Shown one piece after another: positions 6,523 to 49,309 of a stretch of DNA of 64,000 nt. Below the pieces are notes generated by a model. It was not told where the DNA came from, made no database searches, and saw only the letters and a program-made list of their open reading frames with translations. The DNA is from Alphaproteobacteria bacterium (lineage in GTDB: Bacteria; Pseudomonadota; Alphaproteobacteria; Rs-D84), in the NCBI GenBank assembly GCA_046881825.1, contig JBKSMS010000009.1, forward strand, positions 5,307-69,306, written 5' to 3'. Each line of letters starts with the position of its first letter. Position 1 is the first letter of the stretch. The translations under genes and the position numbers were made by a program.

Positions 6523-6792
6523 TTATCTGTGAATTCGTTCTGCTTTTAAAGCAACGATTTGTAATGGATGTGCTATAAGTTGTTTGCGTAACATTTCGCG
6601 TTTTGCTTGGACTTGTTTATTGTGTTTTAAAGTTTTATTTTTCTTATACAACACAGAATCGGGATCTATGGTCATTTCTTCTGGATACATCATATTGTGT
6701 TTTTTATATTCTTTTCTGAATGTTTTTCTAGGCATTTCTAAAATAACGGTATCACCAATTTGAATGTAATCATAAGTATTGTTGTCATACAT
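6523..6792 (-). CDS. Hypothetical protein (GD...NxT orphan family; ends ERIHR)
   Basis: ATG with AGGA upstream; terminator-like hairpin at ~6494-6521; YDYIQIGDTVIL...KNKT. Confidence 0.6.
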   Translation of the reverse strand: MYDNNTYDYIQIGDTVILEMPRKTFRKEYKKHNMMYPEEMTIDPDSVLYKKNKTLKHNKQVQAKREMLRKQLIAHPLQIVALKAERIHR

Positions 6793-6821
6793 TGTTATCC
6801 TGGCGGCAAGAAATGTTTTTC

Positions 6822-6847
6822 TAATTCGTGGCGCACCCAGCGGGAGT
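6822..6847 (-). repeat. Direct duplication of tRNA-Arg 3' end
   Basis: 6828-6847 GTGGCGCACCCAGCGGGAGT is identical to 6993-7012; the match extends to 26 bp with one mismatch; spacing 165 bp. Confidence 0.92.
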
Positions 6848-6993
6848 GTAATTCCCGCTCACTTTGTTCGCGGGCCCCTTTCACTTCGCTTCGCTTCGTC
6901 CCGAACCTGTCGTTGCTGCGCAACTTTTTCGGTTCGCCTCCCTTGGGTGATAACAACACAAACAAAACCGACCACAAGGGTCGGTTTAATTTG

Positions 6994-7070
6994 TGGCGCA
7001 CCCAGCGGGAGTCGAACCTGCAGTCTTTGCCTTCGGAGGGCAATGCATTATCCAGTTATGCTATGGGTGC
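6994..7070 (-). tRNA. tRNA-Arg(CCG)
   Basis: GCACCCATAGCATAACTGGATAATGCA-TTGCC-CT-CCG-AA-GGCAA...GGTTCGACTCC...GGGTGCGCCA; encoded CCA. Confidence 0.96.
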
Positions 7071-7087
7071 ATGCGTTATATTATATC

Positions 7088-8159
7088 TTATTTTGCCAGC
7101 ATTGCCAACATAAAATCGTCCAAGTCACCATCAAGAACCGCAGCAGAATCTGTCTTTTCAACATTTGTCCGAACATCTTTAACCAATTGGTACGGGTAAA
7201 GAACATAGTTGCGAATTTGACTGCCCCATTCGATTTTTTTCTGTTGTGCCTTTGCTGCGTCTTCTTCGGCAGCGCGTTTTTGCATTTCCAATTCATAAAG
7301 ACGAGATTTTAACATCTTCATCGCCATTTCTTTGTTTTGAATTTGACTGCGTTCGTTCTGGCAAGTCACAACGGTATTTGTTGGGATATGCGTAATACGC
7401 ACCGCGGAATCTGTCTTGTTAACATGCTGGCCTCCGGCACCACTTGCACGATAAGTGTCAATGCGCAAATCTTTTTCGTTTATTTCAATTTCTATGGAAT
7501 CATCAACATCTGGCCACACATCTACCGAAGCAAAACTGGTCTGACGTTTGCCGTTTGCATTAAAAGGCGATATGCGAACCAATCTGTGAACGCCGATTTC
7601 ATTCTTTAACCAACCAAATGCGCGTTCGCCAGAGATACGAAAAGTGACGCTTTTTATTCCCGCAACATCCCCAATGTGTTCTTCGACGGTTTCGATTGTA
7701 AAGCCATGTCTTTCGCACCATCTGGTATACATACGGGACAGCATTTGCGCCCAATCTTGTGCTTCTGTGCCACCGGCACCCGCCTGAATAAACAAAAAGG
7801 CACCATTGTTATCCATTGGGTCGTTAAACAAAGTGATAAATTTAGCGCGATGAACATCGTCAGCCAAGGTTGATATTGCAGTCAAAACATCTGTATCTTC
7901 TGGGGATAATTCATACAATTCAACCAAATTATTATATTCGCTTTCGAGATGGTTAAATTCAGACAACTGTTTTTCTAGATTTGATTTTTTCTGTAAAATT
8001 CCGCGGGCATAATCAGGATTGTCCCACAAATCAGGCGCATTTACAATTTGATTTAATTTTTCTATTTCTGATTGGATTTTATTTGGGTCAAAGAAACCCC
8101 CTTATGGCGGAAATATCGTCATAAATTTGATTTAAAATTTCATTGTTTGTCGTAATCAT
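7088..8159 (-). CDS. prfB: Peptide chain release factor 2 with programmed +1 frameshift
   Basis: ATG at 8159, 23 codons ending AGG GGG TTT CTT TGA C (shift at 8090), then the +1 frame runs to 7088; SPF and GGQ motifs. Confidence 0.97.
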
Positions 8160-8275
8160 GTTCAAAATATAGCAATTTATTTATCTAAATCAACTTTTTT
8201 GTGTTTTTATTGTTAAAGTTTTATTGCGTTTAGTTTTAAAATATGATAAAATAATTCTAACGAGAGGGATTTCTT

Positions 8276-9523
8276 ATGAAAAGATTTTGGTTGACTTGTG
8301 GATGTATCGGCGCTTTTTTGATAGGCGATGCGGCAATGGCCATTTCTGCGGGAACCGTTGCTAATGATTCTGCGCGCGCATCGGTTTATACTAATTCTGC
8401 AGGATATTCAACTGCGGGCAGTCGCGGGCAAAAGGGTATTGCTAATGCGTATATCCAAAATCAACGCAATACATATTTCTTGGTTACACAACCAGATGTT
8501 GATACCGCATGCCGTCGTAAAATTATGAACTGTTTAACAGATTATTGTGGCGACAGCACTGTTGTTCCTGGAAAAACATCTTCTCGGTGTATGTATGCAA
8601 CTGAAACAGAATTGTATAATTATGCATTGCTTTGCTTACAAAAAGATACATCCATCTTGCTACCACAATATAACACAATGACAAGAAATGGGGCGGGGGG
8701 GATGAATACGGCTGCACGTCTTTGTCCGTCTTATGTGCAACAAGAATTAATGTCTTATTTATCAATGGCGAATATGGCGGATAAATTGACTAAATCTCAT
8801 TCTGATTTGTGTGTCCAGCGCCGTCGTGAATTAGAAGCGGCCATGGCGTGTCATTCTGTTGCTTTGGCTTATGGTAACGAAACAACCAGTATGTTGACTA
8901 CACAATTGACCGATTATTGCGGTGCTGGTGTTGCTGGTGGTTCTGCTGAAATGGTGACTCGTTTTGTTAATGCTGGTAATGTTGGTGCCAGTGTTTGGGG
9001 TTGGGCTGAAAAAATAGTTAGTTTGGATTTGAATAACAAGGGTGCAAATTGGGAATCTGCGGTTGATGCTGTTTTGGCAAGTTATACGAATCGTATGAAT
9101 TTGGCATGTGGTGATGATTTACAATTAAATACTGTGTCTCATCCAACAACAACAAATACTACACCTAATTTACAGAATGCCGTGTCTTTGGTTGCGAATG
9201 TTGCTTTTCCAACCACACAAAACACAAAACAAAATCCATATGAAGACCAAAGTGTTTTTATGGAAGTGACATCGATGTCTGAAATATATGATTATGCCAG
9301 TGCGAACCAGGTTGTTCAAGCAGGTTTAACAAACAGTGCTTTGACACAAAACTCGTTTTTAACATCTACACAGATGGATCAAATGCAAAAGGCATATAAG
9401 CGCGGGACCAAGGTGTTTATTATCCGCGACAGCACGCGTTGTTATACTGTTCCTGTGACCAGTTTGACTCAGTCAGAAACTTCACTGGTTGCAAATGCTT
9501 TTGCTAACTGTGTCAGCAGATAA
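8276..9523 (+). CDS. Exported cysteine-rich hypothetical protein
   Basis: Signal-peptide-like N-terminus (MKRFWL...AAMA); many Cys, e.g. CRRKIMNCLTDYC...RC; SD GAGGG; terminator ~9543-9566. Confidence 0.75.
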   Translation: MKRFWLTCGCIGAFLIGDAAMAISAGTVANDSARASVYTNSAGYSTAGSRGQKGIANAYIQNQRNTYFLVTQPDVDTACRRKIMNCLTDYCGDSTVVPGKTSSRCMYATETELYNYALLCLQKDTSILLPQYNTMTRNGAGGMNTAARLCPSYVQQELMSYLSMANMADKLTKSHSDLCVQRRRELEAAMACHSVALAYGNETTSMLTTQLTDYCGAGVAGGSAEMVTRFVNAGNVGASVWGWAEKIVSLDLNNKGANWESAVDAVLASYTNRMNLACGDDLQLNTVSHPTTTNTTPNLQNAVSLVANVAFPTTQNTKQNPYEDQSVFMEVTSMSEIYDYASANQVVQAGLTNSALTQNSFLTSTQMDQMQKAYKRGTKVFIIRDSTRCYTVPVTSLTQSETSLVANAFANCVSR

Positions 9524-9631
9524 ATTATAAAAGTATTTATGAAAGGCACCCTGTGGGGTGCTTTTTAAATATGTAAAAAAATTCATAGCCTTTTCTTGAA
9601 AACGGAGTGTTTTTTTGATATAATATGTTCC

Positions 9632-10822: not shown

Positions 10823-10835
10823 GAAATTTGAATAT

Positions 10836-10864
10836 AAAAAACCGCGTTTATCGCGGTTTTTTTT
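10836..10864. terminator. Bidirectional intrinsic terminator
   Basis: AAAAAACCGCG-TTTAT-CGCGGTTTTTTTT between convergent genes. Confidence 0.85.
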
Positions 10865-10867: not shown

Positions 10868-13800
10868 TTATTTTGTTATAATCGAATCATCGTACGCGTT
10901 ATACAAATCTCCGTTGTACAAGATGTTTATTTGTTTGTTTGATTCTTTGGTCATGTTTACAGCTTCGTCCCCATCTTGTTTTTGTGTCATCTTTAGATAA
11001 TATTTTTTGTTTCCATTGCCAACAGCCAATGACGGAGAAGTTTGTTTTGTTTGTGACAAACACGCAGCATCATTACCAATATGCAGGAATTTTCCAGAAT
11101 CACACACGAATTCTTCTTCGGTCCATTGGGCATAAAGAGTTTTATTACCTGATGACCAAGGTCCGTTAATGGTGTCTTTGACCATGGCGTTTGTTGTGCA
11201 ATTTGGTGTATCTATGCACCATCCGTCAAAGATATATCTATCTTTGGTCGCAGATTGCAGTTGTATAGTTTCATCTTCAACAGTAAATGTTCCGGTAAAC
11301 AATTCTGTTTCGCCATCCATATATGTTATAGTGTAAATTTCTGGTTCGCATGTTGTTGTACCATTTATTTCTTTTTCAATATAACCATCTGGACAAGAAG
11401 TAAAAGACCACTGGGCATATAAATCTAGGTCATAAAGAGTTTCTGCCGGATTTATCATGAATGATTGAACAGGGTTATTACAATTATCTTCACCAACACA
11501 CCAACCAACGAAATCTTCCCAAACGCGATTTTGAGGGTTGCTAATTGTAAACGACGAATCTTCTACTGTGTAAGAAAGTGGATGATTTGCGCCTGTCGCC
11601 CAATCAATATTATCAACATTGTGATAAGTTATTCCATATGTATTCAGGACACATTCTCCAGATTGCTTTGTGTATCCATCGTAACATTCAACATTCATTT
11701 CACACGAATATGTTTCGCCAGGATGTATTGTGCCACTGGGTTGCCCAGAAACTAAAGTGCAACTTGCATGTGCAGGGCAATCGTTGTCACAACTCCAATT
11801 ATAGTAACACGAATTTAAGCCACCTGTATTTTCTTCAACTGAAGTAAATGGATAGTCGGTTGGACATGAAAAACATTGCGCAGAATCAAGATATTGACCG
11901 GCGTGACATGCAATCGCATCCCAATTTGCCCACATCACGATATTTGTTCCCGAACCGTCTGGTGTTGGGATAGAATAACTTGTCACCAATTGTTCGTCTG
12001 TGCAATTATTAGTTTCGCCAACACACCATCCCTTGAAAGTTGCATACACAGTATTTGACGGATTAGATTCTGGCACAGTCAATGGCGTATCAGATACACG
12101 GTATGTTGCGGGCGTCAAATTTGACAACACTGTCCCATCATTGTTTTTGTATGTAATATTGTAACTTGTTTCACCCCAATTCGCGGTGCAAGTTGAATTG
12201 TCTGCAATGAGCCACGTATCGCCGGCTGGGTCAAGACCATTTGTACATGACCAAGAAGTTATTGAATAATTATCCCGTGGTTTACATATATTATCCAAAG
12301 AATACGAACCATCATAATATACAGAAACAGTTGCGGTTTGTCCGTCTGCTAAGTCCCCATCACCACAATCGCGAGTAAACTCGAAAGTCTGTGCAGTCCA
12401 TTGTGCGGTGCAAACCATGTTACTATCAAATCCATATTCAATTACGGCTTCGTTGGCAAGGTCCTCTTCGTATGTTTGATCATCGTCATATACAGCAGAA
12501 CAATGCCACCCTGCAAAATCATAACCAGTTATGCTGAAACCATTAGCGGTTAATTTAACGGTATCTTCATGATTTATTGGTTCGTCAGAATCTTCGCCGT
12601 AATTCACAGTTGTCTGATTCGGCATTTTACCTGTGAAACCAGTTGTTCTATCGCCAGCTTTGCCGTGCAAGAATTCTATGTGATAAGGTGTTGCATTCCA
12701 TTTTGCGTAAAAATCAAAACGAGGTGGTTCATTATTTGGAACTTCTGTGCTTAAAATTTCGGTGACAGGGTCCCCTTCAAATGCGCCATTATTATACCAA
12801 CCAGCAAAATCATAGTGTGGTATGTCATATGTGTTAGGCAGATTCGTATCAACACCATACGTGTGTATTATTGGCAGACTAAAGCTAGATGCTTGTCCAT
12901 CACTGAGCTCATTTTCACCATCATGATATTTTATAGGATATGTATCTGGATCGCATCCCGTCTCTGCATCATTTGAATGATAATTGGTATTACAAGTAAA
13001 TGTAAAGCTGCATGATGGCATGGCTTCGTCAGAACTAATTTCGCGATAATAATCTCTATTGTTTTCATCTATGTTGTCATAGTCGCAAGTTGAATGTTCT
13101 GGACAATCTGCAATTTCTGCTGGGCATACTGCGTAGCAATCATTTACTGTCGTAGCGGTTGTGCCGTCTGCAAATGGATAATAGCCATTTGTTTCATCGC
13201 TGCAAGAGTAGCATGTTCCGCCGCGTTCTGGCAAATAATAACCATCTTCGCAAGATACGCGTGTCCATTGTGCATAAAGATACCAATCTTTGCCAGGTAT
13301 TGGATGTATTCCTTCGACAAGTTGATTGTTTTCAAAATTATACCAACCATCAAATTCAAAATGCTCTCTTATCGGTTCTTCTGCCAGTGTTATGTTGGCA
13401 GTTTCAACAGTGAATGTGTCTGTATAATAAGGATTATCATCATCGGGATTTGTAGTATCATGGTCTTTGTATTGTGCATAATATTTTATTGTATATTCAA
13501 TAGGTTCCCATTGTCCGACCAGTATTACTGGTTGTGTATAAATCTTGTCTTCATCGTCTTTGTCATACTGTGCATTAATAGAGGTAATAGGTGTTTCTGA
13601 AAGTGCATTTCCATTATTATCATACACACCCCAACCGATAAAATTGTATCCAGGATTATCATCATCATCCAAATTTGGTAATTCTGTCACTTCAGCATAA
13701 GTATATTGTGTCGGTAAACCTAAACCACTTATTTCTTGGGCAGTAAGCGAAACAGGCGGGTCACTTTCATAGTTTTCATTGTTAAGATAATATGTTATGT

Positions 13801-15472
13801 TATAACTCGCTGCTTGCCAATGTGCATAAAGATGAACATCTTCTGTAGTATTTGGTGCAATCGTATAAGATTGATTTGCATTTTGTTCTAATACTTCATC
13901 ACTGCAATCATTGTCTATACTATTGCACCAAGCATAAAAATCGTATTGTGCGCTTGATGCCATCGCCGGCGGTATAGTCAGCCCATTATCATTGATATCT
14001 TCAACAGTAAATTCATGAAGATTATCTTCGTTAAGGTCGCGGTCTTCTAACCATGAAGTATCAAAGTTTACATTTGTATCACTGCTGTAATAGTGCACAT
14101 AATATTTATGTGTATCCCACAGGGCAGTACAAGTCATATTACCAGCATAATTATAGTTCGCTATGACATAATTGCCATTGTTGTCTTTTGTTGGTTGGAC
14201 AGATTCAGGTTCTCCATCAACAACACAATTCCAACCAGCGAAATCATATCCTGTTCTTTCAAACGCATTTTCACTTAATACAACATTTGTCTGGTCATAA
14301 TACACATCCTGATTTTCCATAGAACCAGGGTTATTATTTATCACCACATCAACTGTTCCTGGTTCAAAGCTAATAGTTGTTTTCCATCTTGCATAAAAAG
14401 TCTTGTCGCCATAAGAACCTGTTGGTATTGTCTGTGTTCGCGCACATTTTGTTTCGTCTGTTGGGTTTGTGGTCTCTTCACACCAGCCATCAAACACAAA
14501 TGGATCCATATTGTTCAAATCTGGGATGGTTACAGTTTTATACACAATTGAATACAGTGCTTCTGGTTCTGATACCCAAGTTGCCTTTTCGAACCGTTTT
14601 TCGTATGTTACATCATATTTTTCAATATTACACGCAGAATACCTGCCAAACACCTGTGCACGGAAAAAGCTGTTATCGCCCTTCATCGCACTAACACAGT
14701 CAGCCGCGCACTTGTCGGCACAACGGTCAGCGACTGAAGGATAGTTAAGTTTGTTATCATATGTCTTCAAATATACCCACGGACTATCTGTGGTTTGTTG
14801 TGATCCATCACTTGATTCAAAATTCATCATTTTACACCAACAATGACCGCCACTGTCATTTGTGTTACCAATATTGTTTGTCTCAGAATATTCAATGGCA
14901 TCAGGTGGTGTTAAACCATCATCTGCCATGCAACCAGATTTACCATACACCACATACCACGGATTTATTACGGTAGCTCCAGATATACCATCAGCAAAAA
15001 GCAATCCCCAGATTCCCTTTTCGCCATTATCTTTTATTCCCGGAACATAATCGTTTTTACCATCGTTGCCTGTTGTGACTTGAGTGCGACTACTTATATA
15101 GGCAGTCAATGACCCTTTTGTTCCAAGACTTGGGTCCAACATCCCCGCAGAATCATTGTTTTTACCATATCCAGGATTGCAGGTTTGAGGCACAGGGAAT
15201 TGGTTAAAATACTGGACATAAACAGAACCACCGGTCGAAGTTTGGCTGCCAGAACTAGATACCCTTCGTACATACACATCTGTAGGTGCGTATTCCGAAA
15301 CGCTTGCCGGTGCAGATTTAGCCAAGACAGACCGAAGCTCTTGACCCGAAGGAAAACTTGTCACAGCATACACATTTGATACACCAAACGTCAAAACGAC
15401 CGCAAACAACGCAGTTTTAAAAAATGTTAAAACACGCGCAAATCTAGGCACATTAACCCCTTTCCATAACAT
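10868..15472 (-). CDS. Large exported repeat protein (InlB B-repeat/Flg_new-like units, Cys-rich modules, conserved C-terminal domain)
   Basis: Signal peptide (...VSNVYA); repeated Y-x-I-x-Y ... F-x-GW ... LYA-x-W units; C-x-x-G-Y/Q modules; 1534 aa. Confidence 0.85.
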   Translation of the reverse strand: MLWKGVNVPRFARVLTFFKTALFAVVLTFGVSNVYAVTSFPSGQELRSVLAKSAPASVSEYAPTDVYVRRVSSSGSQTSTGGSVYVQYFNQFPVPQTCNPGYGKNNDSAGMLDPSLGTKGSLTAYISSRTQVTTGNDGKNDYVPGIKDNGEKGIWGLLFADGISGATVINPWYVVYGKSGCMADDGLTPPDAIEYSETNNIGNTNDSGGHCWCKMMNFESSDGSQQTTDSPWVYLKTYDNKLNYPSVADRCADKCAADCVSAMKGDNSFFRAQVFGRYSACNIEKYDVTYEKRFEKATWVSEPEALYSIVYKTVTIPDLNNMDPFVFDGWCEETTNPTDETKCARTQTIPTGSYGDKTFYARWKTTISFEPGTVDVVINNNPGSMENQDVYYDQTNVVLSENAFERTGYDFAGWNCVVDGEPESVQPTKDNNGNYVIANYNYAGNMTCTALWDTHKYYVHYYSSDTNVNFDTSWLEDRDLNEDNLHEFTVEDINDNGLTIPPAMASSAQYDFYAWCNSIDNDCSDEVLEQNANQSYTIAPNTTEDVHLYAHWQAASYNITYYLNNENYESDPPVSLTAQEISGLGLPTQYTYAEVTELPNLDDDDNPGYNFIGWGVYDNNGNALSETPITSINAQYDKDDEDKIYTQPVILVGQWEPIEYTIKYYAQYKDHDTTNPDDDNPYYTDTFTVETANITLAEEPIREHFEFDGWYNFENNQLVEGIHPIPGKDWYLYAQWTRVSCEDGYYLPERGGTCYSCSDETNGYYPFADGTTATTVNDCYAVCPAEIADCPEHSTCDYDNIDENNRDYYREISSDEAMPSCSFTFTCNTNYHSNDAETGCDPDTYPIKYHDGENELSDGQASSFSLPIIHTYGVDTNLPNTYDIPHYDFAGWYNNGAFEGDPVTEILSTEVPNNEPPRFDFYAKWNATPYHIEFLHGKAGDRTTGFTGKMPNQTTVNYGEDSDEPINHEDTVKLTANGFSITGYDFAGWHCSAVYDDDQTYEEDLANEAVIEYGFDSNMVCTAQWTAQTFEFTRDCGDGDLADGQTATVSVYYDGSYSLDNICKPRDNYSITSWSCTNGLDPAGDTWLIADNSTCTANWGETSYNITYKNNDGTVLSNLTPATYRVSDTPLTVPESNPSNTVYATFKGWCVGETNNCTDEQLVTSYSIPTPDGSGTNIVMWANWDAIACHAGQYLDSAQCFSCPTDYPFTSVEENTGGLNSCYYNWSCDNDCPAHASCTLVSGQPSGTIHPGETYSCEMNVECYDGYTKQSGECVLNTYGITYHNVDNIDWATGANHPLSYTVEDSSFTISNPQNRVWEDFVGWCVGEDNCNNPVQSFMINPAETLYDLDLYAQWSFTSCPDGYIEKEINGTTTCEPEIYTITYMDGETELFTGTFTVEDETIQLQSATKDRYIFDGWCIDTPNCTTNAMVKDTINGPWSSGNKTLYAQWTEEEFVCDSGKFLHIGNDAACLSQTKQTSPSLAVGNGNKKYYLKMTQKQDGDEAVNMTKESNKQINILYNGDLYNAYDDSIITK

Positions 15473-20589: not shown

Positions 20590-20691
20590 ATCTCAAAGAA
20601 AAACTAAATGTTTGGTGTGGGTTTGTACGGATTTTTGACGTATTTATCTATCATTAAATCTATTATGCTGCAACAACCAAAGGAGAACCAA

Positions 20692-21510
20692 ATGAAGTAT
20701 ATAAGAATTTTTGATTATTTACCAAGGGATACAAAAACTGTTTTTGCAACAGTTGTGTTAAGCACTTTGACTTTTCAAATCAAACAAAATGATTCAAAAG
20801 TGCCAAAGGCTTCTTTCCCAAAGCCAAATGTTTCTGCTTTTAATATGTTGACGGCGGAAAATTTGATGCACAACACATATGTTATTAAAAACTTTCAAAG
20901 TGAAGTGGATAAAACAAACAATGCCAAAAATATTGGCACAGATTCTCTTAATAATATTGTGCCGATTAAATCTGTTGAAAGCGACAGTGTCAAACCAGCA
21001 ACTAATATCGAAAAAGATGTTTCTAATGCTGGTTCCGAAGTAAAAATCTTAGCAAGTGGGAAAAAAGTAAAATATATTTACAACGATGGCACAATCGAAA
21101 TCCGCGAAGGTGGCACATTAGCTTGGCGCAATAAAAATCCTGGTGCTTTAAGAAGCAGCGATAAGTCTGTTGGCAAAGCTAATAGATTTGCTGTATTTGC
21201 ATCCGAAGAAGAAGGTATGGAGGCAATGAAGGCTTTGTTACGTGGCGAAAAATTTTGTAATTTATCATTAATGGCAGCAGTTGCTAAATATGCACCGCCA
21301 CATGAAAACAACACAAAAAAGTATCAGGCTGATTTGAAAAGACTCACAGGTCTTGATTTGAACTTGAAATTGCGTGATTTAACCGAAGAAGAACTGGACC
21401 GTGTGGCGCAAACAATCAAAAAAATAGAAGGTTGGGTTCCAGGTAAATTAACCCGCATCGAAGCGCAAAAGCAAATTGTTGATACATTGGCACGACAAAA
21501 TGTGCGTTAA
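20692..21510 (+). CDS. Putative lysozyme-like/peptidoglycan hydrolase (RNxNPG family)
   Basis: SD AAGGAG; AWRNKNPGALR...FAVFASEEEG...KYAPPHENNTKKY...IKKIEGW; ends RQNVR. Confidence 0.65.
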   Translation: MKYIRIFDYLPRDTKTVFATVVLSTLTFQIKQNDSKVPKASFPKPNVSAFNMLTAENLMHNTYVIKNFQSEVDKTNNAKNIGTDSLNNIVPIKSVESDSVKPATNIEKDVSNAGSEVKILASGKKVKYIYNDGTIEIREGGTLAWRNKNPGALRSSDKSVGKANRFAVFASEEEGMEAMKALLRGEKFCNLSLMAAVAKYAPPHENNTKKYQADLKRLTGLDLNLKLRDLTEEELDRVAQTIKKIEGWVPGKLTRIEAQKQIVDTLARQNVR

Positions 21511-23159: not shown

Positions 23160-23546
23160 TTACTTTTGTATTTGTTTAAATAATTCTAGATATACCATAC
23201 TTTTCTTTTGCTCAATTTTTGCGCGTTCTTCTTCAGCTTTTTTTTGTTCTTGTTCGGTATACAAACGGCAAACATCAAAAAATATTTCTTGCTTTACAGG
23301 TAGTTCAAGATCTTTTATTTCTTGACCTTTAACAAATATTTTGTGTACAACAGTGTTTCCTTCGTTAGTCATTCTACCCAAAGAACTCGCACCATGGGCG
23401 CTAAGAATTACTTCTGTTGAGTTTGTGTCTTTAATGTCATATTCAATCCAATCCCCATTACAATCGAGCCTTTTTAATGGTCTTGAGTGATATATTTTTC
23501 TTTCAACCACAAATGTTCTGCCTGCTAAAATTTCTTTTAATGACAT
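23160..23546 (-). CDS. Hypothetical protein
   Basis: ATG with AAGGA SD; 128 aa; charged helical C-terminus ending FKQIQK. Confidence 0.65.
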   Translation of the reverse strand: MSLKEILAGRTFVVERKIYHSRPLKRLDCNGDWIEYDIKDTNSTEVILSAHGASSLGRMTNEGNTVVHKIFVKGQEIKDLELPVKQEIFFDVCRLYTEQEQKKAEEERAKIEQKKSMVYLELFKQIQK

Positions 23547-26383: not shown

Positions 26384-27007
26384 ATGAAAAAACTAGTTGT
26401 TTTTTGTACGGGACAATCTGGTTCTGGCAAAAGTACTTTTATCAAAAAATTTTTATCAACAAAAGATTTTTATAATCTTAAATCTGCTACAACGCGCCTA
26501 ATGCGCGAAGGTGAAACGGATGGACGCGAATACTATTTCCGCGATGAAGATTATTTCAAAACTGAAAAATTCGCAACCTTGTTGTGGGTAAACGAAAAAT
26601 CTTGGCAGCCCGGTCAACCAAAATGGCTTTATGGTGTCCCTGAATTTGAAGTATTTTATAATTTGGGACTTAATTTTACTTATGATGTCATAGAACCAAA
26701 ATATGTTCGACAAATGATAGATTGGTTTAAAAAGAAAAAATTGACTCAGTATTATGACTTTAAAATTTTATGGTTTCAACCTGTCGCAAATATCGAAAAC
26801 ATTGTTGAAGCGCGTCAAAACATGCCGGACGACAAAAAAGTGCGTAAAGAAAACACTTGTAATATACAAGATTTTCAAAATGTGCATTTGAAACCAGATT
26901 TTGTTATCAAACGCATTCCCCCAGAAGGTTATTTAATACATCCATACGAAAAAACAAAAGAAAAGTATGCTGTGGCGACATTAATGCGCAGAATGAATGT
27001 TCGCTAG
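26384..27007 (+). CDS. Guanylate-kinase-like P-loop protein
   Basis: GQSGSGKST, ATTRLMREGETDGREYYF; divergent C-half; ends RRMNVR. Confidence 0.7.
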   Translation: MKKLVVFCTGQSGSGKSTFIKKFLSTKDFYNLKSATTRLMREGETDGREYYFRDEDYFKTEKFATLLWVNEKSWQPGQPKWLYGVPEFEVFYNLGLNFTYDVIEPKYVRQMIDWFKKKKLTQYYDFKILWFQPVANIENIVEARQNMPDDKKVRKENTCNIQDFQNVHLKPDFVIKRIPPEGYLIHPYEKTKEKYAVATLMRRMNVR

Positions 27008-35393: not shown

Positions 35394-35483
35394 CGATTTT
35401 CTCTTTTATTAACAAGCATAGCATTCTAACCGATTTTTAGACGAATTGCAATTCGATAATTGTTGTGGTATAATACTATCGAT

Positions 35484-36410
35484 ATGACGGATAACAAAGA
35501 TTTTATAAACACAGATAAACCGCGGGAAAGTATTGTTTTTGCCGACGGTAATTATGTTATAAAAAAACCGACAGCAACAAACAAAGAACATATCAAAGTT
35601 TGGGTAAACAAACAAAAAAACGCGAAAAACACTGTCGATAATTTGTTACAAAAATCAAAATATATAAATCAATATTTTGTTCCAAAAATTATAGAAATTT
35701 CTAATACTGATACGCCATATGTTCGCGAAGAAAGGGTTTTGGGTCAGCCTGTTACAAAAAATTTTTTCAAAAAACTGCCCTTGACACAACAAGAAAAATT
35801 ATATGATTCTTTGGCTGCGTTTATAACAGATATGAATCAGAGTAAACCAATATTAAATATGTCTTCTTTGTTGCAAGAAACTGACAACAATGGATATAAT
35901 CTTGTGAAAGTGCTGGCATCAATCAAACAATATTTATCAAAAGAAGACATTGAAAAAATTAATCGTATTTATAAATTTTTTATGTCTCGTTCGGATATGA
36001 TGGAAGCATATGTGTTTTTTCATGGTGACATGAACGAAAACAACATGTTTTATGATATTGAACATGATGTTGTTTCTTTCTTGGATTTTGCGGAATCAAA
36101 GTATGAAAACATAGAATATATGTTTAATCATGATTTGAAAAAACTGCAATGGTTGGATACAGAAAAATTGATTTCTAAATATACAAAGATAAATCCAAAA
36201 CTAAGAATTAAATCGGATAAAAATATGTTGAATTTGTTTAATGCTTTGCGCGCGATTCAATGGACTGGCGAATCTTTGATACAACAACCAAAACAGGCAA
36301 ATATTTACAAAATAATTTTAAAAGGAAAAATCAACGAACTGGAAACTGCATATAATAATTGTGTTAAATCTGTTCAAGTTCAACAAATAGCCTCAAAACA
36401 AAGATTATAA
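35484..36410 (+). CDS. APH/choline-kinase-like phosphotransferase
   Basis: YVIKK, FVPKII, FFHGDMNENN, FLDFAE; very low GC; ends QQIASKQRL. Confidence 0.75.
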   Translation: MTDNKDFINTDKPRESIVFADGNYVIKKPTATNKEHIKVWVNKQKNAKNTVDNLLQKSKYINQYFVPKIIEISNTDTPYVREERVLGQPVTKNFFKKLPLTQQEKLYDSLAAFITDMNQSKPILNMSSLLQETDNNGYNLVKVLASIKQYLSKEDIEKINRIYKFFMSRSDMMEAYVFFHGDMNENNMFYDIEHDVVSFLDFAESKYENIEYMFNHDLKKLQWLDTEKLISKYTKINPKLRIKSDKNMLNLFNALRAIQWTGESLIQQPKQANIYKIILKGKINELETAYNNCVKSVQVQQIASKQRL

Positions 36411-39320: not shown

Positions 39321-39501
39321 TTATCTTGTGTGTGTTTTTGCTTGTTCATTAATTTGTAAGTTGCAACGATTATAAATCAAGCGAATATTCACCAATTCGC
39401 GAGCAATCTTTAATGTGTCATTTGTATGTGGTATAAGGCTTATGCCGTTCAAAGAAATATGAAACACATCTTTGTGTTCTTGTAAATATTTCTGTATACA
39501 T
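39321..39501 (-). pseudogene. Probable frameshifted orphan between rimM and trmD
   Basis: SD AAGGA + ATG (39501) gives only 27 codons; a neighbouring frame is open for ~60 codons ending ...EQAKTHTR*, 1 nt before the trmD ATG. Confidence 0.4.
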
Positions 39502-39512: not shown

Positions 39513-39974
39513 TTATTTTACTGTTATGCTTTTGTTTGCCACATCGACAAACGCCCCCACAAAAGACACCATTTCGCCGTTATCTAATTCAATAATATCT
39601 CCCCCGCCATAATTTTGAAAACCATCAACGACACCAATTTTTTTATTATCACGAATAACATCAAATCCAATTAAATCAGTTTGATAATATTCGTTATCTT
39701 TTAATTTTGGTAAATCATCGCGTAAAACAAAAAGTTCTGTTCCACGCAAAGATTCGACTGCATTTCTGTCATCAATACCATCAATTTTTGCGATAATCAT
39801 GTTTTGTTTTAAAACACGAACAAAATGAAAATTTTCACTTTCGCATTTGTCGCATAAAACACGAAAGCCTTTAAAATCATCTGGTTTTGCAGCAAAAGAT
39901 TGCACCCGAAATTCACCACGAATTCCCTGGGGTGCAACGATTTTGCCAACCAAGATTTTGCGATTATCGCGCAT
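39513..39974 (-). CDS. rimM: Ribosome maturation factor RimM
   Basis: VGKIVAPQGIRGE, DRNAVESLRG, EYYQTDLIG; start MRDNRK. Confidence 0.93.
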   Translation of the reverse strand: MRDNRKILVGKIVAPQGIRGEFRVQSFAAKPDDFKGFRVLCDKCESENFHFVRVLKQNMIIAKIDGIDDRNAVESLRGTELFVLRDDLPKLKDNEYYQTDLIGFDVIRDNKKIGVVDGFQNYGGGDIIELDNGEMVSFVGAFVDVANKSITVK

Positions 39975-40206
39975 TTTGTTGCTGCTTTTTCTGAAGTATT
40001 TTATGACAATATTCGCGATACCTTTTACATGTTTCTTCGCGTTCAATTTCATTTTTTAAAGGGCATATTGCGAACAGATTAGTTTTAAATGGAATAACTA
40101 ATTCCGGATTACGAAAAGCAAAATTCTTTAATTCGCTAAAGTAAATTTCTTTTCTTACGCAATCGGCACCATCAAAAGGGCATTCAGTATCGTGTATCGT
40201 AGTCAT
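39964..40206 (-). CDS. Small Cys-containing hypothetical protein (ends QQQNAR)
   Basis: Exactly fills the rpsP-rimM gap; CPF...C...CP...C...YC pattern. Confidence 0.65.
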   Translation of the reverse strand: MTTIHDTECPFDGADCVRKEIYFSELKNFAFRNPELVIPFKTNLFAICPLKNEIEREETCKRYREYCHKILQKKQQQNAR

Positions 40207-40855: not shown

Positions 40856-41509
40856 TTATCTGCCATGGCGTCTGCCAAAATGGTGTTTTCTGTGTTTGTG
40901 GCACCAACCGTCTTGTTTGCGCAAAGCAGGATTAAACTTTTTAACATTGCGTGTCTTTTGGCGAACTACTTTGTCAGAACAATTATCAAAACATATATTT
41001 ACAACGATGTTTATTTGATATTGCGCGTGTGATTCTTCTGGGGGCGTGCTGCCTTTTATATTGTTGCACAATTTATGCGTTTCTTGTAAATTCGACAAAT
41101 CACTTGTTCCGCCCAAAGATTTCGGTTGTATATGATCCCAAGTAAATTCTTTATGGGAACATTTAGTAGCAGAATTACGAACAGTTTGGCTGTTTATATA
41201 TATTGGTTTACCACACAGTTTACACACCGGATAGTGTCCATAATCGCCCATAATAGCATACATTTGCTTTATCTGTTTGTGGTTAAACTGATACAACGGG
41301 TGATTTATTCCAGAGATATTTGTAAGTTTTTTCTTGATACTTTTACGCAAAACAGGCGGATAACACAAATTAACTTCCTTTTCCCCAGTTAATATTTGAA
41401 ACAAAGCTTTTAAGTGTTCCCGGTCCATAGAATTAGTAAGAACAAAAATATCTTTTAATACTTGTTTTATTTCACTGTCTGTCATAATCTTTTTTACTCT
41501 CTTTACCAT
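40856..41509 (-). CDS. HNH endonuclease domain protein
   Basis: CKLCG...TWDHIQPKSLGG...SNLQETHKLCNNIKG; basic His/Arg tail. Confidence 0.85.
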   Translation of the reverse strand: MVKRVKKIMTDSEIKQVLKDIFVLTNSMDREHLKALFQILTGEKEVNLCYPPVLRKSIKKKLTNISGINHPLYQFNHKQIKQMYAIMGDYGHYPVCKLCGKPIYINSQTVRNSATKCSHKEFTWDHIQPKSLGGTSDLSNLQETHKLCNNIKGSTPPEESHAQYQINIVVNICFDNCSDKVVRQKTRNVKKFNPALRKQDGWCHKHRKHHFGRRHGR

Positions 41510-41551: not shown

Positions 41552-41625
41552 TGGTGCGGGCGAAGGGAATCGAACCCTCGTCTAAAGCTTGGGAAGCTTT
41601 CGTGCTGCCATTATACCACACCCGC
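41552..41625 (-). tRNA. tRNA-Gly(CCC)
   Basis: GCGGGTGTGG...AAAGC-TT-CCC-AA-GCTTT...GGTTCGATTCC...CCCGCACCA. Confidence 0.96.
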
Positions 41626-41669: not shown

Positions 41670-41924
41670 TTATCTTTGATATTGTTCTTTGATTTTGGCG
41701 AACTTGTTTTCCATGCCACGCAAAACTTTGTTAGCGTGTTTTCCTTTTTCAAGATTCCTTATCATCCGATTTAACAAGAACCAATCTTCGCGCTTAAGCT
41801 CTGTGTTTTGTATAAAAAACATTATCTCTGCTAACAAATCTGACACAGTTTGTTCTTTTTTTGTCACAGGTGGGACATAATCATAATTTCTATGTCTGGT
41901 ATCTTTCATTATCTGCCTCCACAA
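41670..41924 (-). CDS. Hypothetical protein (ends EQYQR)
   Basis: Fills the gap between the LysM gene and tRNA-Gly; GGAGG before an internal ATG (MKDTRH). Confidence 0.6.
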   Translation of the reverse strand: MWRQIMKDTRHRNYDYVPPVTKKEQTVSDLLAEIMFFIQNTELKREDWFLLNRMIRNLEKGKHANKVLRGMENKFAKIKEQYQR

Positions 41925-44274: not shown

Positions 44275-44466
44275 TTACCGTTTTTTAAAATATCCTGGTC
44301 CCTTTGGTATAAATCTGCCATATGCTCTATATTCTGCTTTCTTTTCGCTAATACTATCTTTTATAAACTTTAAAGTTTTGTCTGATTTTACGAACTTTGA
44401 TGATTTTTTTGTTTCTTTTCTATATTCTTTTTCAACAAATCTGTCTTTGATTTTTTCCAATGTCAT
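44275..44466 (-). CDS. Small basic hypothetical protein (ends YFKKR)
   Basis: 63 aa Lys-rich ORF ending at the terminator hairpin shared with pfkA. Confidence 0.5.
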   Translation of the reverse strand: MTLEKIKDRFVEKEYRKETKKSSKFVKSDKTLKFIKDSISEKKAEYRAYGRFIPKGPGYFKKR

Positions 44467-44645: not shown

Positions 44646-44966
44646 TTAGCGAGTATTAGATTTTTTATAATAAGCTTGCTTAAAATCGTTTATTCTTTTT
44701 TCATTACTTAAATTCTTTAAAATCTTTTTTGTTCGCGATTCACCAATGTATTCAACATAATCACCAATTTTGCATGTTGATAATAAATCTTCGTATGCTT
44801 CATCATCATAATCATCAGAAACAGCATAAACACGACCATCTTCTGGGTTATAAATGCCAACGAAACAATAATGATGGTTGCGTATAATTTTAGTATAGCA
44901 ACCTGTGTTAAATTTTTCTTGTTGATATTTCCACTTAATCTGTTCTACTAACCCGATTTTGCTCAT
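44646..44966 (-). CDS. Hypothetical protein (GD...NxS orphan family; ends KSNTR)
   Basis: AAGGT SD; KIGDYVEY...ILKNLSNE. Confidence 0.65.
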   Translation of the reverse strand: MSKIGLVEQIKWKYQQEKFNTGCYTKIIRNHHYCFVGIYNPEDGRVYAVSDDYDDEAYEDLLSTCKIGDYVEYIGESRTKKILKNLSNEKRINDFKQAYYKKSNTR

Positions 44967-45068
44967 AATTCATACCTTTTTATGGTGCAAAACATAACAC
45001 AAAGCCGGCAAAAGTCAACAAAAAAACCGGGCAAACACCCGGTTTTCAAAGGAAGAAAGAGAAAAACA

Positions 45069-46967: not shown

Positions 46968-47110
46968 AATTTAACTCCTTAAAGTTTTTGCATAACCAAG
47001 ATATAGTTATAAACGATATTGTTTCAAGGGGAAAATTGAAAAATATTTTTGGTATATATTCACACAAAAAACCGCCCGTTTGGGCGGTTAATTTTATGTA
47101 TAACACAATG

Positions 47111-47728
47111 TTATTTCTTTGCCGGGGCAGCAGCTGCAGCAGCTTGTTGTTTTGCATCTGCTTCTTCTGGCATTTTACCACCAATTGTAGCAAAAGCCAA
47201 ATCTGCCATACGCAAGCCCAAAGTAATACCTTTTGGCAAAACCAAATCAGACCCATGAATTGTATCGCCAATCGTCACATCTGCCAAATCAATAGTGATT
47301 TTTTCTGGCATATCAGAAACCAGACCAACCAAAGCCACCTTACGAACAGCAAAATTCAAAACACCGCCCAATTTAATACCTTTGGAAATATCGGCATTAA
47401 TAACCTCAACAGGCACAACGACATGCACTGGTTTTTTAACATCGATTCTTTTGAAATCGACATGAACAACCTTGTCCGACACCGGATGATATTGAATATC
47501 CATCAACATAGCATCTTCTTTGTTGCTGCCAACCATAATTTCAAACAATTTTGTTCGCAAAGATGGTTTACCCAACAACACATTAAAATCGTGTCCGTTT
47601 AATTCAATGGACACAGGTTCTTTCTTTTCGCCATAGATAACAGCAGGGATATTTGCATTCTTGCGAACTGCACGTGCGGCCCCCTTGCCAGCAACTTTGC
47701 GAATTTCAGCATTTAATTTAATAGCCAT
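47111..47728 (-). CDS. rplY: 50S ribosomal protein L25/Ctc
   Basis: GKGAARAVR, IPAVIYG, QYHPV, HVDF, GIKLGG. Confidence 0.96.
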   Translation of the reverse strand: MAIKLNAEIRKVAGKGAARAVRKNANIPAVIYGEKKEPVSIELNGHDFNVLLGKPSLRTKLFEIMVGSNKEDAMLMDIQYHPVSDKVVHVDFKRIDVKKPVHVVVPVEVINADISKGIKLGGVLNFAVRKVALVGLVSDMPEKITIDLADVTIGDTIHGSDLVLPKGITLGLRMADLAFATIGGKMPEEADAKQQAAAAAAPAKK

Positions 47729-47829
47729 TTTTAATTCCTTTTATATTTATTTTTACAATACACGACCTCCAAGGGTGTCGTGCGGGGCATATTATTTATC
47801 AAAAAACGCAAAAAATCAAGTTTTTTATA

Positions 47830-48372
47830 TTATTTTTTCACTAATATCAAAAATCTAGCGCGCCCATAAGTTTTGTCTTTTAAAACTTCCCAGTTTGTGT
47901 CGATCTTAGGGTCTGGTTGATTTGATTCAAATTCCCAAATCAAAATCGCGCCAGATTTGGCTATTTTTCCGACTTTTTTAACAAACAATAGTCCCAATCC
48001 AAAGTCGGCATAGGGCGGGTCAACAAAAAACAAATCTGTCATTCCGCCAAAACGCGGCACAGCAGATATTGCATCTGTTTTTTCCAGTGTTGCGCGTTCG
48101 TTCATTGACAAAAGATTCTTTTTAACCGTATCAATAACGACATCTGTAAAAACAACCATAGGCTGGTTAAACCTGGACAAACATTCCAACCCAAAAGCCC
48201 CAGAACCTGCAAACGCATCCCAAACAGCTATGGGGACAGTTGTATCAATTATTCCGTTTAACATATTGAACAGCGCGCCACGTGCCATATTTTGTGTTGG
48301 TCGCGCGTCATTTGGCAAAAACAACTTCTTACCACGATATTTTCCAGAAATAATTTGCAAATTCGATTTCAT
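47830..48372 (-). CDS. rsmD: 16S rRNA m2G966 methyltransferase RsmD
   Basis: IISGKYRG, RPT, DAFAGSGAFGLE, DPPY. Confidence 0.92.
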   Translation of the reverse strand: MKSNLQIISGKYRGKKLFLPNDARPTQNMARGALFNMLNGIIDTTVPIAVWDAFAGSGAFGLECLSRFNQPMVVFTDVVIDTVKKNLLSMNERATLEKTDAISAVPRFGGMTDLFFVDPPYADFGLGLLFVKKVGKIAKSGAILIWEFESNQPDPKIDTNWEVLKDKTYGRARFLILVKK

Positions 48373-48389
48373 GGTATAAACTTTACATT

Positions 48390-48854
48390 ATGAATTTTAT
48401 GAATCAAGCATTTATTTTAGCAAAAAAAGCCAAAAATCATGACGATGTTCCAATCGGCGCAGTAATTGTTCGCAATACTAAAATCATAGCCCGTGGCGAA
48501 AACCGTGTCCAAAAATCTAAAAACCCGACATTACACGCAGAAATAGTAGCAATTAACAAAGCTTGTAAAAAATTAAATGCCAAGTTTTTGGATGATTGTG
48601 ATTTATATGTGACTCTGGAACCATGCGCCATGTGTGCTACTGCGATTTCTTTTGCACGAATCAAAAACATCTATTTTGCAGCAACAGACGAAAAGGGCGG
48701 GGGAATAACCGCAAATGCGCGTATATTTGAAAACGACAAACATTTATGGAAACCGAACGTGATTCAAATGCCGGAATACGCAGAACAATCTGCAAAAATG
48801 CTGCGCGATTTTTTTAAACAACAACGACAAAACAAAAAGGAAATAAAATGGTAA
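48390..48854 (+). CDS. tadA: tRNA adenosine deaminase TadA
   Basis: VPIGAVIV, HAE, TLEPCAMC. Confidence 0.9.
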   Translation: MNFMNQAFILAKKAKNHDDVPIGAVIVRNTKIIARGENRVQKSKNPTLHAEIVAINKACKKLNAKFLDDCDLYVTLEPCAMCATAISFARIKNIYFAATDEKGGGITANARIFENDKHLWKPNVIQMPEYAEQSAKMLRDFFKQQRQNKKEIKW

Positions 48855-49309
48855 TAAAATCTGTAATGATACTTGAACCGCTTTTTGCAGAATATTATAC
48901 AATTTCATTAAACCAATTTGATGAAGAACCTTATAAGAAAACCGGATATTCCAAAGTAAAAAATGTGAAAGAATTTAAACCCGCCAAAGGCGATACTTTT
49001 GAAGTAAAATATACCCCGGATGGTATGATTTGGACAAAACTTGCCAATTACAAAGAACATAATTTTGAACATGCTGTTGTTTTGGGGGTCAAGGGTTTAC
49101 AATTGTGGGTATACGGTAATAAAATAGGCAGAAAATTAATCAATGACAATTTAACCATAAACAACAATCCAGTATCACCAAAAATTTACGAACACAAACG
49201 CGGTGATGAATTGTTGCTTGAAATAGATAAAACAATTCGTATTATTCACAACATAACAGTCGAAAAGCTGGCATACAACGAAAGACAAAACTGGCCACAC
49301 ACCAGATAA
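48848..49309 (+). CDS. Hypothetical protein (GD...NxT orphan family; ends WPHTR)
   Basis: SD AAGGA; KRGDELLL...IIHNITVE. Confidence 0.7.
   Translation: MVIKSVMILEPLFAEYYTISLNQFDEEPYKKTGYSKVKNVKEFKPAKGDTFEVKYTPDGMIWTKLANYKEHNFEHAVVLGVKGLQLWVYGNKIGRKLINDNLTINNNPVSPKIYEHKRGDELLLEIDKTIRIIHNITVEKLAYNERQNWPHTR

Follow-up and report, generated by a model that had tools for sequence, protein, structure and literature searches.

The stretch of DNA analysed here, referred to as the window, comprises 64,000 nucleotides (nt) from a member of the alphaproteobacterial order Rs-D84 (GenBank assembly GCA_046881825.1, contig JBKSMS010000009.1, positions 5,307 to 69,306 of the forward strand). Dispersed between positions 6523 and 49309 are ten open reading frames (ORFs) whose products end in arginine, and these C-terminal tails are the subject of this report. 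A preliminary description had read them as an [N/H]-x-R-stop signature shared by accessory proteins and possibly used in secretion or targeting. In our own ORF set and in the sequence, all ten tails as well as two near misses end as stated there. The carriers are less certain as genes, in that eight were kept by our ORF caller but two, of 48 amino acids (aa) at 39321 and of 80 aa at 39964, are doubtful. The ten ORFs are:

6523..6792, minus strand: 89-aa orphan, ends ..AERIHR, stop codon TAA, intrinsic terminator directly downstream.
20608..21510, plus strand: 300-aa protein, ends ..ARQNVR (Q at -4, N at -3), C-terminal domain like phage lysin/tape-measure lytic domains (PHROGs).
26384..27007, plus strand: 207-aa guanylate-kinase-like P-loop protein (Pfam), ends ..RRMNVR, stop codon TAG.
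39321..39467, minus strand: 48-aa ORF, doubtful gene, ends ..KTHTR, between trmD and rimM, rejected by the ORF caller, no Pfam family.
39964..40206, minus strand: 80-aa ORF, doubtful gene, ends ..QQNAR, between rpsP and rimM in the rpsP-rimM-trmD operon, rejected by the ORF caller.
40856..41509, minus strand: 217-aa HNH endonuclease (Pfam), ends ..GRRHGR, adjoins tRNA-Gly(CCC) at 41552-41625.
41670..41924, minus strand: 84-aa orphan, ends ..KEQYQR (Q at -4 and -2), family size 1.
44275..44466, minus strand: 63-aa orphan, ends ..GYFKKR, stop codon TAA, terminator downstream, family size 1, no Pfam or PHROG family.
44646..44966, minus strand: 106-aa orphan, ends ..KKSNTR, fits [KRNH]-[QTS]-R.
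48848..49309, plus strand: 153-aa orphan, ends ..NWPHTR, fits [KRNH]-[QTS]-R, terminator downstream.

The window is part of contig C9 of a 0.89-Mb assembly in 21 contigs (G000; ~37% guanine plus cytosine (GC), 93.7% complete). It was compared with two genomes of the same genus, Ca. Enterousia, namely G003 (two contigs, 50% GC) and G285 (one contig, 43% GC), and with G040 from another family of the order (31% GC; 788 kb of ~1.0 Mb covered). Enterousia is described in sections of PMC12306168 as an alphaproteobacterium of the uncultured order Rs-D84 with reduced gut genomes of ~0.9 Mb that have neither a tricarboxylic acid cycle nor a respiratory chain. The four genomes are kin and represent replicates of one lineage trait, not independent origins. 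Genes were called with our own caller, which ranks stop-to-stop ORFs on codon log-likelihood, with long ORFs as the training set, and selects among them greedily with little overlap allowed; in G000 it returned 852 ORFs covering 88% of the genome. Because the stop position is fixed, the C-terminus is independent of the choice of start codon. For G000 and G003, core proteins are the 561 pairs of best reciprocal BLASTP hits (median identity 64%), and the rest are called accessory or non-shared, a status that rests on BLAST between incomplete assemblies; the homologue classes of G040 come from a cruder, one-directional comparison. All 2605 proteins of the three congeners (G000, G003 and G285) were also clustered into families, and proteins without a homologue in the compared genomes are referred to as orphans. 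The unrelated control consists of 435 kb of Escherichia coli K-12 in nine stretches, one small sample of one species, processed with the same caller. Its accessory set comprises the annotated cryptic prophages and the leuX island with bounds that we set ourselves, a definition that differs from the BLAST-based one.

Terminal arginine is enriched in accessory proteins throughout the source genome and in its relatives, and this part of the preliminary description was strongly confirmed (odds ratios (ORs) 3.9-5.61 in four genomes). In G000, arginine ends 42 of 291 non-shared and 20 of 561 shared proteins (Fisher p 3.5e-8; OR 4.55, confidence interval (CI) 2.55-8.37), and the corresponding numbers in G003 are 58/289 and 24/561 (OR 5.61, CI 3.33-9.68). 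The share in G285 is 34/230 for proteins shared with neither of the other congeners, 9/158 for those shared with one and 17/515 for those shared with both (OR 5.08, p 5e-8), and proteins of G040 without a homologue end in R in 36 of 327 cases vs 13 of 422 (OR 3.9, p 1.8e-5). Grouped by family size in the three congeners, terminal R is found in 103 of 462 singletons (22.3%), 10.5% of proteins in two-member families, 3.5% in three-member families and 4.3% in larger ones. Proteins without homologues thus stand at 103/462 and conserved families at 69/1839 (OR 7.4 (7.36), p 4e-33), and the excess over the conserved rate amounts to ~31, 46 and 29 proteins per genome. No other residue at the last position behaves like R, with an orphan-vs-conserved OR of 0.4-1.5 in all cases but C (3.4, p 0.03).

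The contrast persists within length classes, such as that of 100-200 aa (G000, 17/94 vs 3/145; G003, 25/89 vs 9/144). Among singletons, R ends 23 of 52 proteins of 70-100 aa, 31 of 122 of 150-250 aa and 15 of 140 of at least 250 aa. Confounding by length, codon score, Arg content and GC at third codon positions was rejected in a logistic model, in which accessory status stays significant (G000, OR 3.7, p 9e-5; G003, OR 4.4, p 1.6e-7). Overlap with terminators was likewise dismissed as a cause, with R at the end of 99/613 accessory genes without a terminator and 35/197 with one. A more basic concern is that many orphans may not be genes and that the pattern may reflect DNA composition near stop codons, the more so as the caller is simple and our own and the orphans are short with a lower codon score (median 0.16-0.17 per codon vs 0.235). 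We regard this as highly improbable. ORFs rejected by the caller end in R in just 3.9-9.7% of cases and show no enrichment of [KRNH][QTS] at -3,-2 or of Q at -4, which largely refutes an artefact; terminal R in accessory genes exceeds the rejected-ORF rates of 7.0% and 9.7%, and the excess persists in the longer singletons just given. Moreover, the 20 largest R-enders among the accessory proteins outside the window include 13 with ordinary domains in Pfam (serine recombinase, S41 peptidase, GDP-mannose dehydratase, radical SAM, NUDIX-pyrophosphatase, NAD synthase, SIMPL, histidine phosphatase, Clp-protease-like, DHFR, isochorismatase family, DUF559 and inorganic pyrophosphatase), and many carriers have a clean terminator as the next feature downstream.

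The R-enders also share a pattern in the residues that precede the arginine. Q at -4 and R at -3 are enriched in G000 and G003, and a test of fixed hypotheses in G285 gave Q at -4 in 15/60 R-enders vs 38/843 (p 3.5e-7) and [KN] at -3 in 24/60 vs 152/843 (p 1.4e-4). When the 204 R-enders of three genomes are pooled and compared with 1716 proteins ending in neither K nor R, the differences at -5 concern N (11.8% vs 4.7%, p 0.0002) and Q (10.3% vs 2.8%, p 4e-6), at -4 Q (16.7% vs 3.6%, p 1e-11), at -3 K (25% vs 11.7%, p 9e-7) and R (14.7% vs 5.1%, p 3e-6), and at -2 Q (13.7% vs 4.3%, p 8e-7) and T (11.3% vs 4.0%, p 7e-5); upstream of -5 no difference was found in the pooled set. The combination [KRNH][QTS] at -3,-2 separates R-enders from the rest in each genome (G000, 11/62 vs 36/790; G003, 22/82 vs 26/768; G285, 15/60 vs 32/843; G040, 10/49 vs 33/700), and the Q at -4 was not replicated in G040 (2/49 R-enders). 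At the ends of singletons (34 of 462), [KRNH][QTS]R is 60 times as frequent as it is per internal position, and at those of conserved proteins (8 of 1839) the ratio is 4.

That selection acts on the protein, as the preliminary description had argued, is borne out by the variety of synonymous codons, by the absence of the pattern from rejected ORFs and by its spread over unrelated families, the 34 proteins with Q at -4 and terminal R falling in 32 distinct ones. The end QRTR is written in four ways (CAA CGC ACG CGT; CAG CGT ACA CGT; CAG CGC ACC CGA; CAA CGG ACC CGC). Inflation by paralogy was rejected, as only two G000 families hold two R-enders and resampling of one protein per family keeps a median p of 6e-8 for Q at -4. 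A conserved DNA element at gene ends was rejected as well, no bases being kept beyond the codons or downstream of the stop, and extension by stop loss as the source of Q was set aside by reasoning, since it does not fit the dip at -3.

As a motif, [N/H]-x-R did not survive and must be regarded as picked after the fact. [NH]xR-stop occurs 10 times among the 852 ORFs of G000, five of them inside the window; in the R-enders from elsewhere N/H at -3 is at background (5/52). When ten tails are drawn at random, the best residue pair at -3 covers at least five of them in 34% of 20,000 draws (P=0.34). [NH] at -3 is not enriched in R-enders of G003 (6/82 vs 45/768) or G285 (7/60 vs 64/843) and is enriched in those of G040 (12/49 vs 60/700, p=0.0013). 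K, R, N or H stands at -3 in 8 of the 10 listed tails, and the N-x-R and H-x-R tails are a minority spelling of the real pattern, (Q)-[K/R/N/H]-[Q/T/S]-R-stop. The claim of a lineage-specific tail on accessory proteins is therefore partly confirmed: right in substance, as a lineage-wide C-terminal tail on non-conserved proteins, and wrong in its spelling.

Terminal arginine cannot be considered apart from terminal lysine, which ends 24-30% of all proteins in these genomes. Relative to bulk composition, the last residue in G000 is K in 253/852 proteins (3.8x), R in 62/852 (1.68x), T in 4/852 (0.08x) and P in 13/852 (0.44x). G003 is alike (K 4.4x, R 1.67x; T 6/850, P 5/850), and K/R enrichment in G285 and G040 is similar. 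According to the text sections of Weber et al. (2020; PMC7246954), a survey of 1,582 genomes, K (2.32x) and R (1.76x) are enriched at -1 and T (and P) depleted, only CGA, AGA and AGG are strongly enriched among Arg codons, last codons of the NNA type are preferred, and abundant proteins have a stronger preference for K but not for R. Both the R enrichment found here (1.68x and 1.67x) and the scarcity of terminal T match these sections, and for this reason the tails are filed here as a variant of the known bias. The ratio of R to K in the four genomes is as follows:

G040, 31% GC: R:K 0.33 at orphan ends, 0.28 in orphan bulk, 0.11 at conserved ends.
G000, 37% GC: R:K 0.67 at orphan ends, 0.42 in orphan bulk, 0.11 at conserved ends.
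G285, 43% GC: R:K 0.97 at orphan ends, 0.74 in orphan bulk, 0.13 at conserved ends.
G003, 50% GC: R:K 1.83 at orphan ends, 0.77 in orphan bulk, 0.16 at conserved ends.

The orphan ratio follows composition, so the anomaly lies as much in the K-only habit of the conserved genes as in the R of the orphans. Since the basic ends of conserved proteins are nearly all K and those of non-conserved proteins are K or R by genome usage, R endings come to look like an accessory mark. GC ranges from 37 to 50% within the genus at near-constant genome size and is 31% in the other family of the order, and terminal K in conserved proteins is still 25-31%.

Lysine tails carry the same pattern as arginine tails. 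In orphans, [KRNH][QTS] at -3,-2 is found in 42/139 R-tails, 36/209 K-tails and 18/441 others, and Q at -4 in 17%, 8% and 3%, respectively. The tails are further coupled to the choice of stop codon, TAA being used in 81% of R-tails, 83% of K-tails and 68% of the other orphans, and TGA in 6%, 5% and 17%. Codon choice within the tail is biased too. The codon variety of the terminal arginine, on which the preliminary description had relied, is real to the extent that all six codons are used; AGA and CGA are, however, over-used. In accessory genes both are enriched at -1 (AGA 7.6x, CGA 7.7x; range 7.6-12.6x), and the values for core genes are 2.0x for AGA and 1.5x for CGA, with CGT and CGC depleted. 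AGA makes up 0.30 of all Arg codons in accessory and 0.17 in core genes. Among other last codons AAA, GAA and CAA are enriched and GGA is not. In all genes, A at third codon positions climbs towards the stop, its share being 0.32 in gene bodies and 0.38-0.45 in codons -5 to -2. On either side of the stop, adenine is enriched in G000 and G003, at 57-59% for the final two bases of the closing codon and 47-53% for the first three bases downstream.

The favoured protein end in Ca. Enterousia and Rs-D84 is (Q)-[K/R/N/H]-[Q/T/S]-[K/R], followed by UAA, with an A-ending last codon. We consider that the tails are the known bacterial C-terminal K/R bias in an extreme, structured and lineage-wide form, K being fixed in conserved genes, and not an address label; the probability of this reading is, in our estimate, about one half. 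A basic ending may be selected for better chain release at the stop codon (UAA), for protection of the C-terminus from proteolysis, or for both, these being the two mechanisms that have been proposed for the general bias. Conserved proteins, which are probably more abundant, would additionally be held on the best codon, AAA, and in young or weakly constrained proteins the free C-termini would drift to any basic ending. As far as the text sections of PMC7246954 go, the likeness to the pan-bacterial bias includes K and R up, T and P down, CGA and AGA favoured, NNA preferred and an effect that fades within a few residues. K but not R goes with abundance there, and here K and R are split by conservation, which is a proxy only. 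According to the same paper, the last residues shift protein level up to fourfold in Mycoplasma pneumoniae, partly via degradation rate. The differences are that the bias is much stronger here, K and R together ending up to 50% of orphans, and that the positional grammar and the partition of K and R by conservation (OR 7.4) are absent from those text sections. A literature search retrieved no earlier description of a K/R split by gene conservation, which is not proof of its absence from print.

Several observations weigh against this reading. Ends in K or R are together commoner in orphans (37-50%) than in conserved proteins (29-34%), which the general bias does not predict, and the structural constraint that would explain this orphan excess is something that we only infer. 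[KRNH][QTS] is stronger in R-tails than in K-tails (30% vs 17%, p=0.006), and K at -2 is avoided in R-tails (6% vs 16%). CGT and CGC alone account for 21 of 136 singleton ends in G003, and the effect is therefore not only one of A-ending codons. The end xRTR closes nine proteins in the three genomes with different codons, where a hand estimate from independent positions gives ~2. Among conserved genes no gradient with divergence is seen, the R share being 5.3% below 45% identity and 2.2% above 75%; the step thus lies between shared and unshared genes and not between slow and fast ones. Finally, the E. coli K-12 sample shows no contrast, with terminal R in 14/181 prophage and island genes (10/146 without the leuX island) and 25/220 backbone genes (OR 0.65, CI 0.30-1.36). 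It also shows no length trend for terminal R and, in its first five stretches (239 ORFs), no enrichment of [KRNH][QTS] in R-enders (2/24 vs 13/215). With neither contrast nor motif in this sample, the trend is not simply common to all bacteria.

The codon data bear on a further possibility, namely that the tail is read by another machine, as a stabilising cap, as a degradation or adaptor signal, or as a brake on the expression of young or foreign genes through slow termination after Arg codons and ribosome rescue. The signature is position-specific, acts at the protein level and is confined to the last five residues, which speaks for such a machine, and AGA and CGA are over-used at -1; in work by Hayes, Bose and Sauer from 2002 in PNAS, rare Arg codons before the stop are said to cause SsrA tagging in E. 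coli. Known bacterial C-terminal degrons of the ssrA/ClpXP kind have non-polar last residues, unlike the basic and polar tails described here. K-tails carry the same pattern, a brake on expression is not expected to couple with the strong stop TAA, and in G003 CGT and CGC, which are common codons, occur just as frequently as the rare ones. The up to fourfold effect of last residues on protein level in M. pneumoniae, as given in the text of PMC7246954, would be compatible with such a machine, and a likeness to stop-codon stalling and SsrA tagging (C-terminal Pro effects, in parts of PMC3985003) lies in the influence of last residues or codons on the outcome at the stop and in the use of AGA and CGA here. 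The known effects lower the yield, however, and the endings that cause them are avoided, whereas the endings found here are strongly favoured. On balance, we think it unlikely that another machine of this kind is at work.

The preliminary description had put forward a different meaning, in which the tails mark effectors of a secretion system encoded outside the window, and had proposed to look for a virB/virD4 locus. Homologues of VirB4, VirD4, VirB9 and VirB10 are indeed present in the genome outside the window, as matches above the Pfam cut-off:

C12:93621-96038 of G000: VirB4 homologue, 72% identity to G003.
C10:124396-126783 of G000: VirD4 homologue, 68% identity to G003.
C21:5101-5826 and 7666-8220 of G000: VirB9 and VirB10 homologues.

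The four homologues lie at three separate loci, and the TrbL/VirB6 Pfam family was not found in G000. Of 121 genomes of the order that are at least 90% complete, 120 have a single copy of VirB4, and a type IV system is thus a core trait of this genome-reduced lineage. In such a scheme, a short basic C-terminal [K/R]-x-[R/K] would be read by the VirD4 of a conserved VirB/D4-type system and would mark ~30-45 species-specific substrates per genome, in keeping with the excess of 31, 46 and 29 R-enders. The machinery is there, with VirB4 and VirD4 conserved relative to G003, and the E. coli K-12 sample, which has no VirB4-family match, also has no contrast. The carriers have properties that would suit substrates. 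R-tailed singletons are small and basic, with a net charge of +3.5 per 100 aa vs +1.0 in other singletons, and the tail is concentrated in such species-specific proteins (23/52 singletons of 70-100 aa), 76% of R-ending singletons being without an N-terminal hydrophobic stretch. The signs of protein-level selection, with QRTR in four codon sets, absence from rejected ORFs and 32 unrelated families, and the retention of R in 14 of 25 pairs from two-member families are likewise in keeping with a label. Sorting signals such as LPXTG and PEP-CTERM have a hydrophobic helix followed by a basic tail; a signal of that type was rejected, as only 22% of R-ending singletons have a transmembrane-like window anywhere and the listed tails are hydrophilic.

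In Agrobacterium the signal of VirB/D4 substrates (Vir proteins) is similar in kind, being described in parts of PMC3937733 and PMC10025392, which cite Vergunst et al. (2005), as a C-terminal peptide rich in arginine for which positive charge is important. The likeness consists in the C-terminal position, the Arg or positive charge, the unrelated carriers and the setting in an alphaproteobacterium with VirB4 and VirD4. Unlike here, the signal known from those parts is an Arg-rich peptide or positive clusters and not a terminal tripeptide. In the R-enders, residues -21 to -2 hold 1.07 vs 0.88 Arg (p=0.06) in G000 and 1.59 vs 1.28 (p=0.08) in G003, and neither Arg count nor net charge significantly exceeds that of other accessory proteins (p 0.06-0.55 overall); the 20-residue tail is thus neither Arg-rich nor more positive. 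The Arg excess is confined to -1 and -3, with R at 14.4% at -1 vs 2.7-6.5% at -2 to -20 in G000 and 20.1% vs 3-11% in G003. The orphan R:K also follows GC, and a link to TAA and A-ending codons would not be expected of a docking signal. Basic ends are just ~1.4x commoner in orphans than in conserved housekeeping proteins, the carriers include enzymes of NAD salvage and sugar-nucleotide metabolism and are unclustered, and in two window families the tail is not kept (0/14 and 4/11). A complex prediction for the VirD4 homologue (residues 100-795) with the 106-aa orphan gave a score of 0.00 and no answer, and speaks neither for nor against. An effector tag specific to R was thus not upheld, given that K-tails share the pattern, R:K follows GC, the tail is coupled to TAA, the carriers are mixed and conservation among homologues is moderate. 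We hold the effector reading to be unproven and a rule of termination or stability to be likelier, and we regard an address label as doubtful. Were it true, the tail would allow the secreted proteins of an uncultured symbiont-like bacterium to be recognised from sequence alone, in an order of which every member keeps a type IV system, and the effector repertoire of an uncultured, genome-reduced gut lineage would be readable from sequence.

The distribution of R-enders along the genomes is relevant to the idea that the tail marks origin, with non-shared genes having come from donors or mobile elements with such ends and being as yet unadapted. R-enders are concentrated in genes without congener homologues, and AGA takes the larger share of Arg codons in accessory genes noted above (0.30 vs 0.17). 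An example that would fit is an accessory run at G000 C14:88923-98544, possibly an NAD salvage island, which holds isochorismatase-family, radical SAM and NAD synthase genes and a NUDIX-pyrophosphatase fusion, three consecutive genes ending in R; its NAD synthase (NadE) is present in 1 of 100 other genus genomes, at 98% identity. Nevertheless, R ends are equally frequent in single genes inserted among core genes and in large islands, E. coli prophage and island genes show no excess (14/181), and the orphan R:K follows the GC of the resident genome. None of the five single-copy orphans among the carriers matches a phage family in PHROGs, and GDP-mannose dehydratase (Gmd), whose wider family ends ..ENVRHAD, gained its ..QYQR-type end within the lineage. 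A mark of origin is accordingly quite improbable. Clustering in islands was rejected, none being found in a test of neighbouring R-R pairs (5 vs 3.9 expected, P=0.35; 7 vs 7.7, P=0.68).

In homologues the tail is kept to a moderate degree only. R stays R across genomes in 14/25 pairs from two-member families, 24/77 from three-member and 28/183 from larger families, and the commonest partner of R is K (88 vs 66 R). The 300-aa and 153-aa families of the window give 0/14 and 4/11, and the G003 counterpart of the kinase-like protein ends in KLQH. In NadE homologues ..LK[IV]R is retained and the chain stops 0-3 residues later, at R, K or another residue. The ends of Gmd and NadE wander over 0-3 residues and yet keep landing on a basic residue. 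In the Gmd of the lineage (G000 C6:730-1788; P0121-P0240), the wider-family end ..DNGFAENVRHAD is replaced by ..KEYTR, ..KQYQR or ..QQKIR, a shorter and Q-rich end that has R as its last residue in 26 of the 30 closest cluster representatives. In Gmd the C-terminus has clearly been remodelled within the lineage.

Of the carriers in the window, only the HNH endonuclease (40856) and the guanylate-kinase-like protein (26384) have Pfam matches above the curated cut-off; eight have none. Of the ten proteins scanned against PHROGs, six (the five single-copy orphans and the 80-aa ORF) had no match, and a phage origin of the window orphans was rejected within that set. The family of the 300-aa protein (20608) is multi-copy, as 22 of 41 relatives have matches, at most three in any one genome, and none of 14 homologue tails ends in R. 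In this family (loci L002-L015) the C-terminal ~140 residues are conserved, and the N-terminal halves and extreme C-termini are not. The best reciprocal hit of the 207-aa kinase-like protein in G003 ends ..KLQH, and the sole G003 counterpart of the HNH endonuclease, a best reciprocal hit of 31% identity over ~100 residues, ends ..NKGR.

The orphans are mostly narrow in distribution. For the 89-aa orphan (6523), no Pfam or PHROG family and no match in 100 other genus genomes were found, and its family size is 1 across the three genomes. The 84-aa orphan (41670) has no PHROG family and a single sub-threshold Pfam match, to Ring_hydroxyl_A (E 0.006; 16.9 bits vs a cut-off of 24.9 bits). Weak matches to the 106-aa orphan (44646) occur in 5 of 100 genus genomes, and neither of two aligned tails ends in R. 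The 153-aa orphan (48848) has homologues in 9 of 100 genus genomes; 4 of 11 tails end in R (HTR, HIR, KIR and LTR), two of them being strains at no less than 92% identity, and a search of a protein atlas with this orphan gave no usable match. Among assembled contigs of the RNA-library runs X1, X2, X4 and X5, one from X2 (175 nt, 1 difference) covers 48835-49009, but such contigs may be DNA and transcription is not proven by it; a lack of cover elsewhere in the stretch carries no meaning. A cytidine/tRNA-adenosine deaminase-like gene at 48390-48854 overlaps the start of this orphan by 7 nt on the same strand, and the two may therefore be co-translated. As for the doubtful ORFs, the one of 80 aa (39964) overlaps the longest RimM ORF by 89 nt and has no Pfam or PHROG family. 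The RimM Pfam match begins only at residue 35, however, so RimM may start later and the 80-aa ORF may be real. A small KH-domain gene sits at the rpsP-rimM position in some bacteria.

The statement that just one of 28 named housekeeping proteins in the window ends in R was roughly right; among the 46 window genes with a best reciprocal hit there are five R-enders, namely ribosomal protein S4, a 415-aa protein absent from the earlier list, and three of the listed carriers. The first two, together with the near misses, are located as follows:

3866..4498, minus strand: ribosomal protein S4, a conserved R-ender, ends ..EFYSR, tail identical in G003.
8276..9523, plus strand: 415-aa conserved protein without a Pfam family, ends ..NCVSR, G003 orthologue ends ..CRSSL.
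35460-36410: near miss, ends ..KQRL.
23160-23546: near miss, ends ..QIQK.

The window also holds a very large, lineage-specific ORF of 1534 aa at 10868-15472 (minus strand), which has family size 1 when compared with the two other congeners and ends ..SIITK.

In conclusion, the ten tails of the window are part of a lineage-wide C-terminal pattern in which basic ends are shared by many proteins and arginine is set apart by gene conservation. If the tails are indeed an extreme form of the general K/R bias, this lineage is an extreme case in nature of the principle that the final residues of a protein are important, with a third to half of its proteins ending in K or R. The purpose of the C-terminal bias, and the reason why K beats R, would then become testable with simple reporters. 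It would also follow, as a warning, that a rule of the form "accessory proteins end in R" can arise in such genomes without any targeting function.

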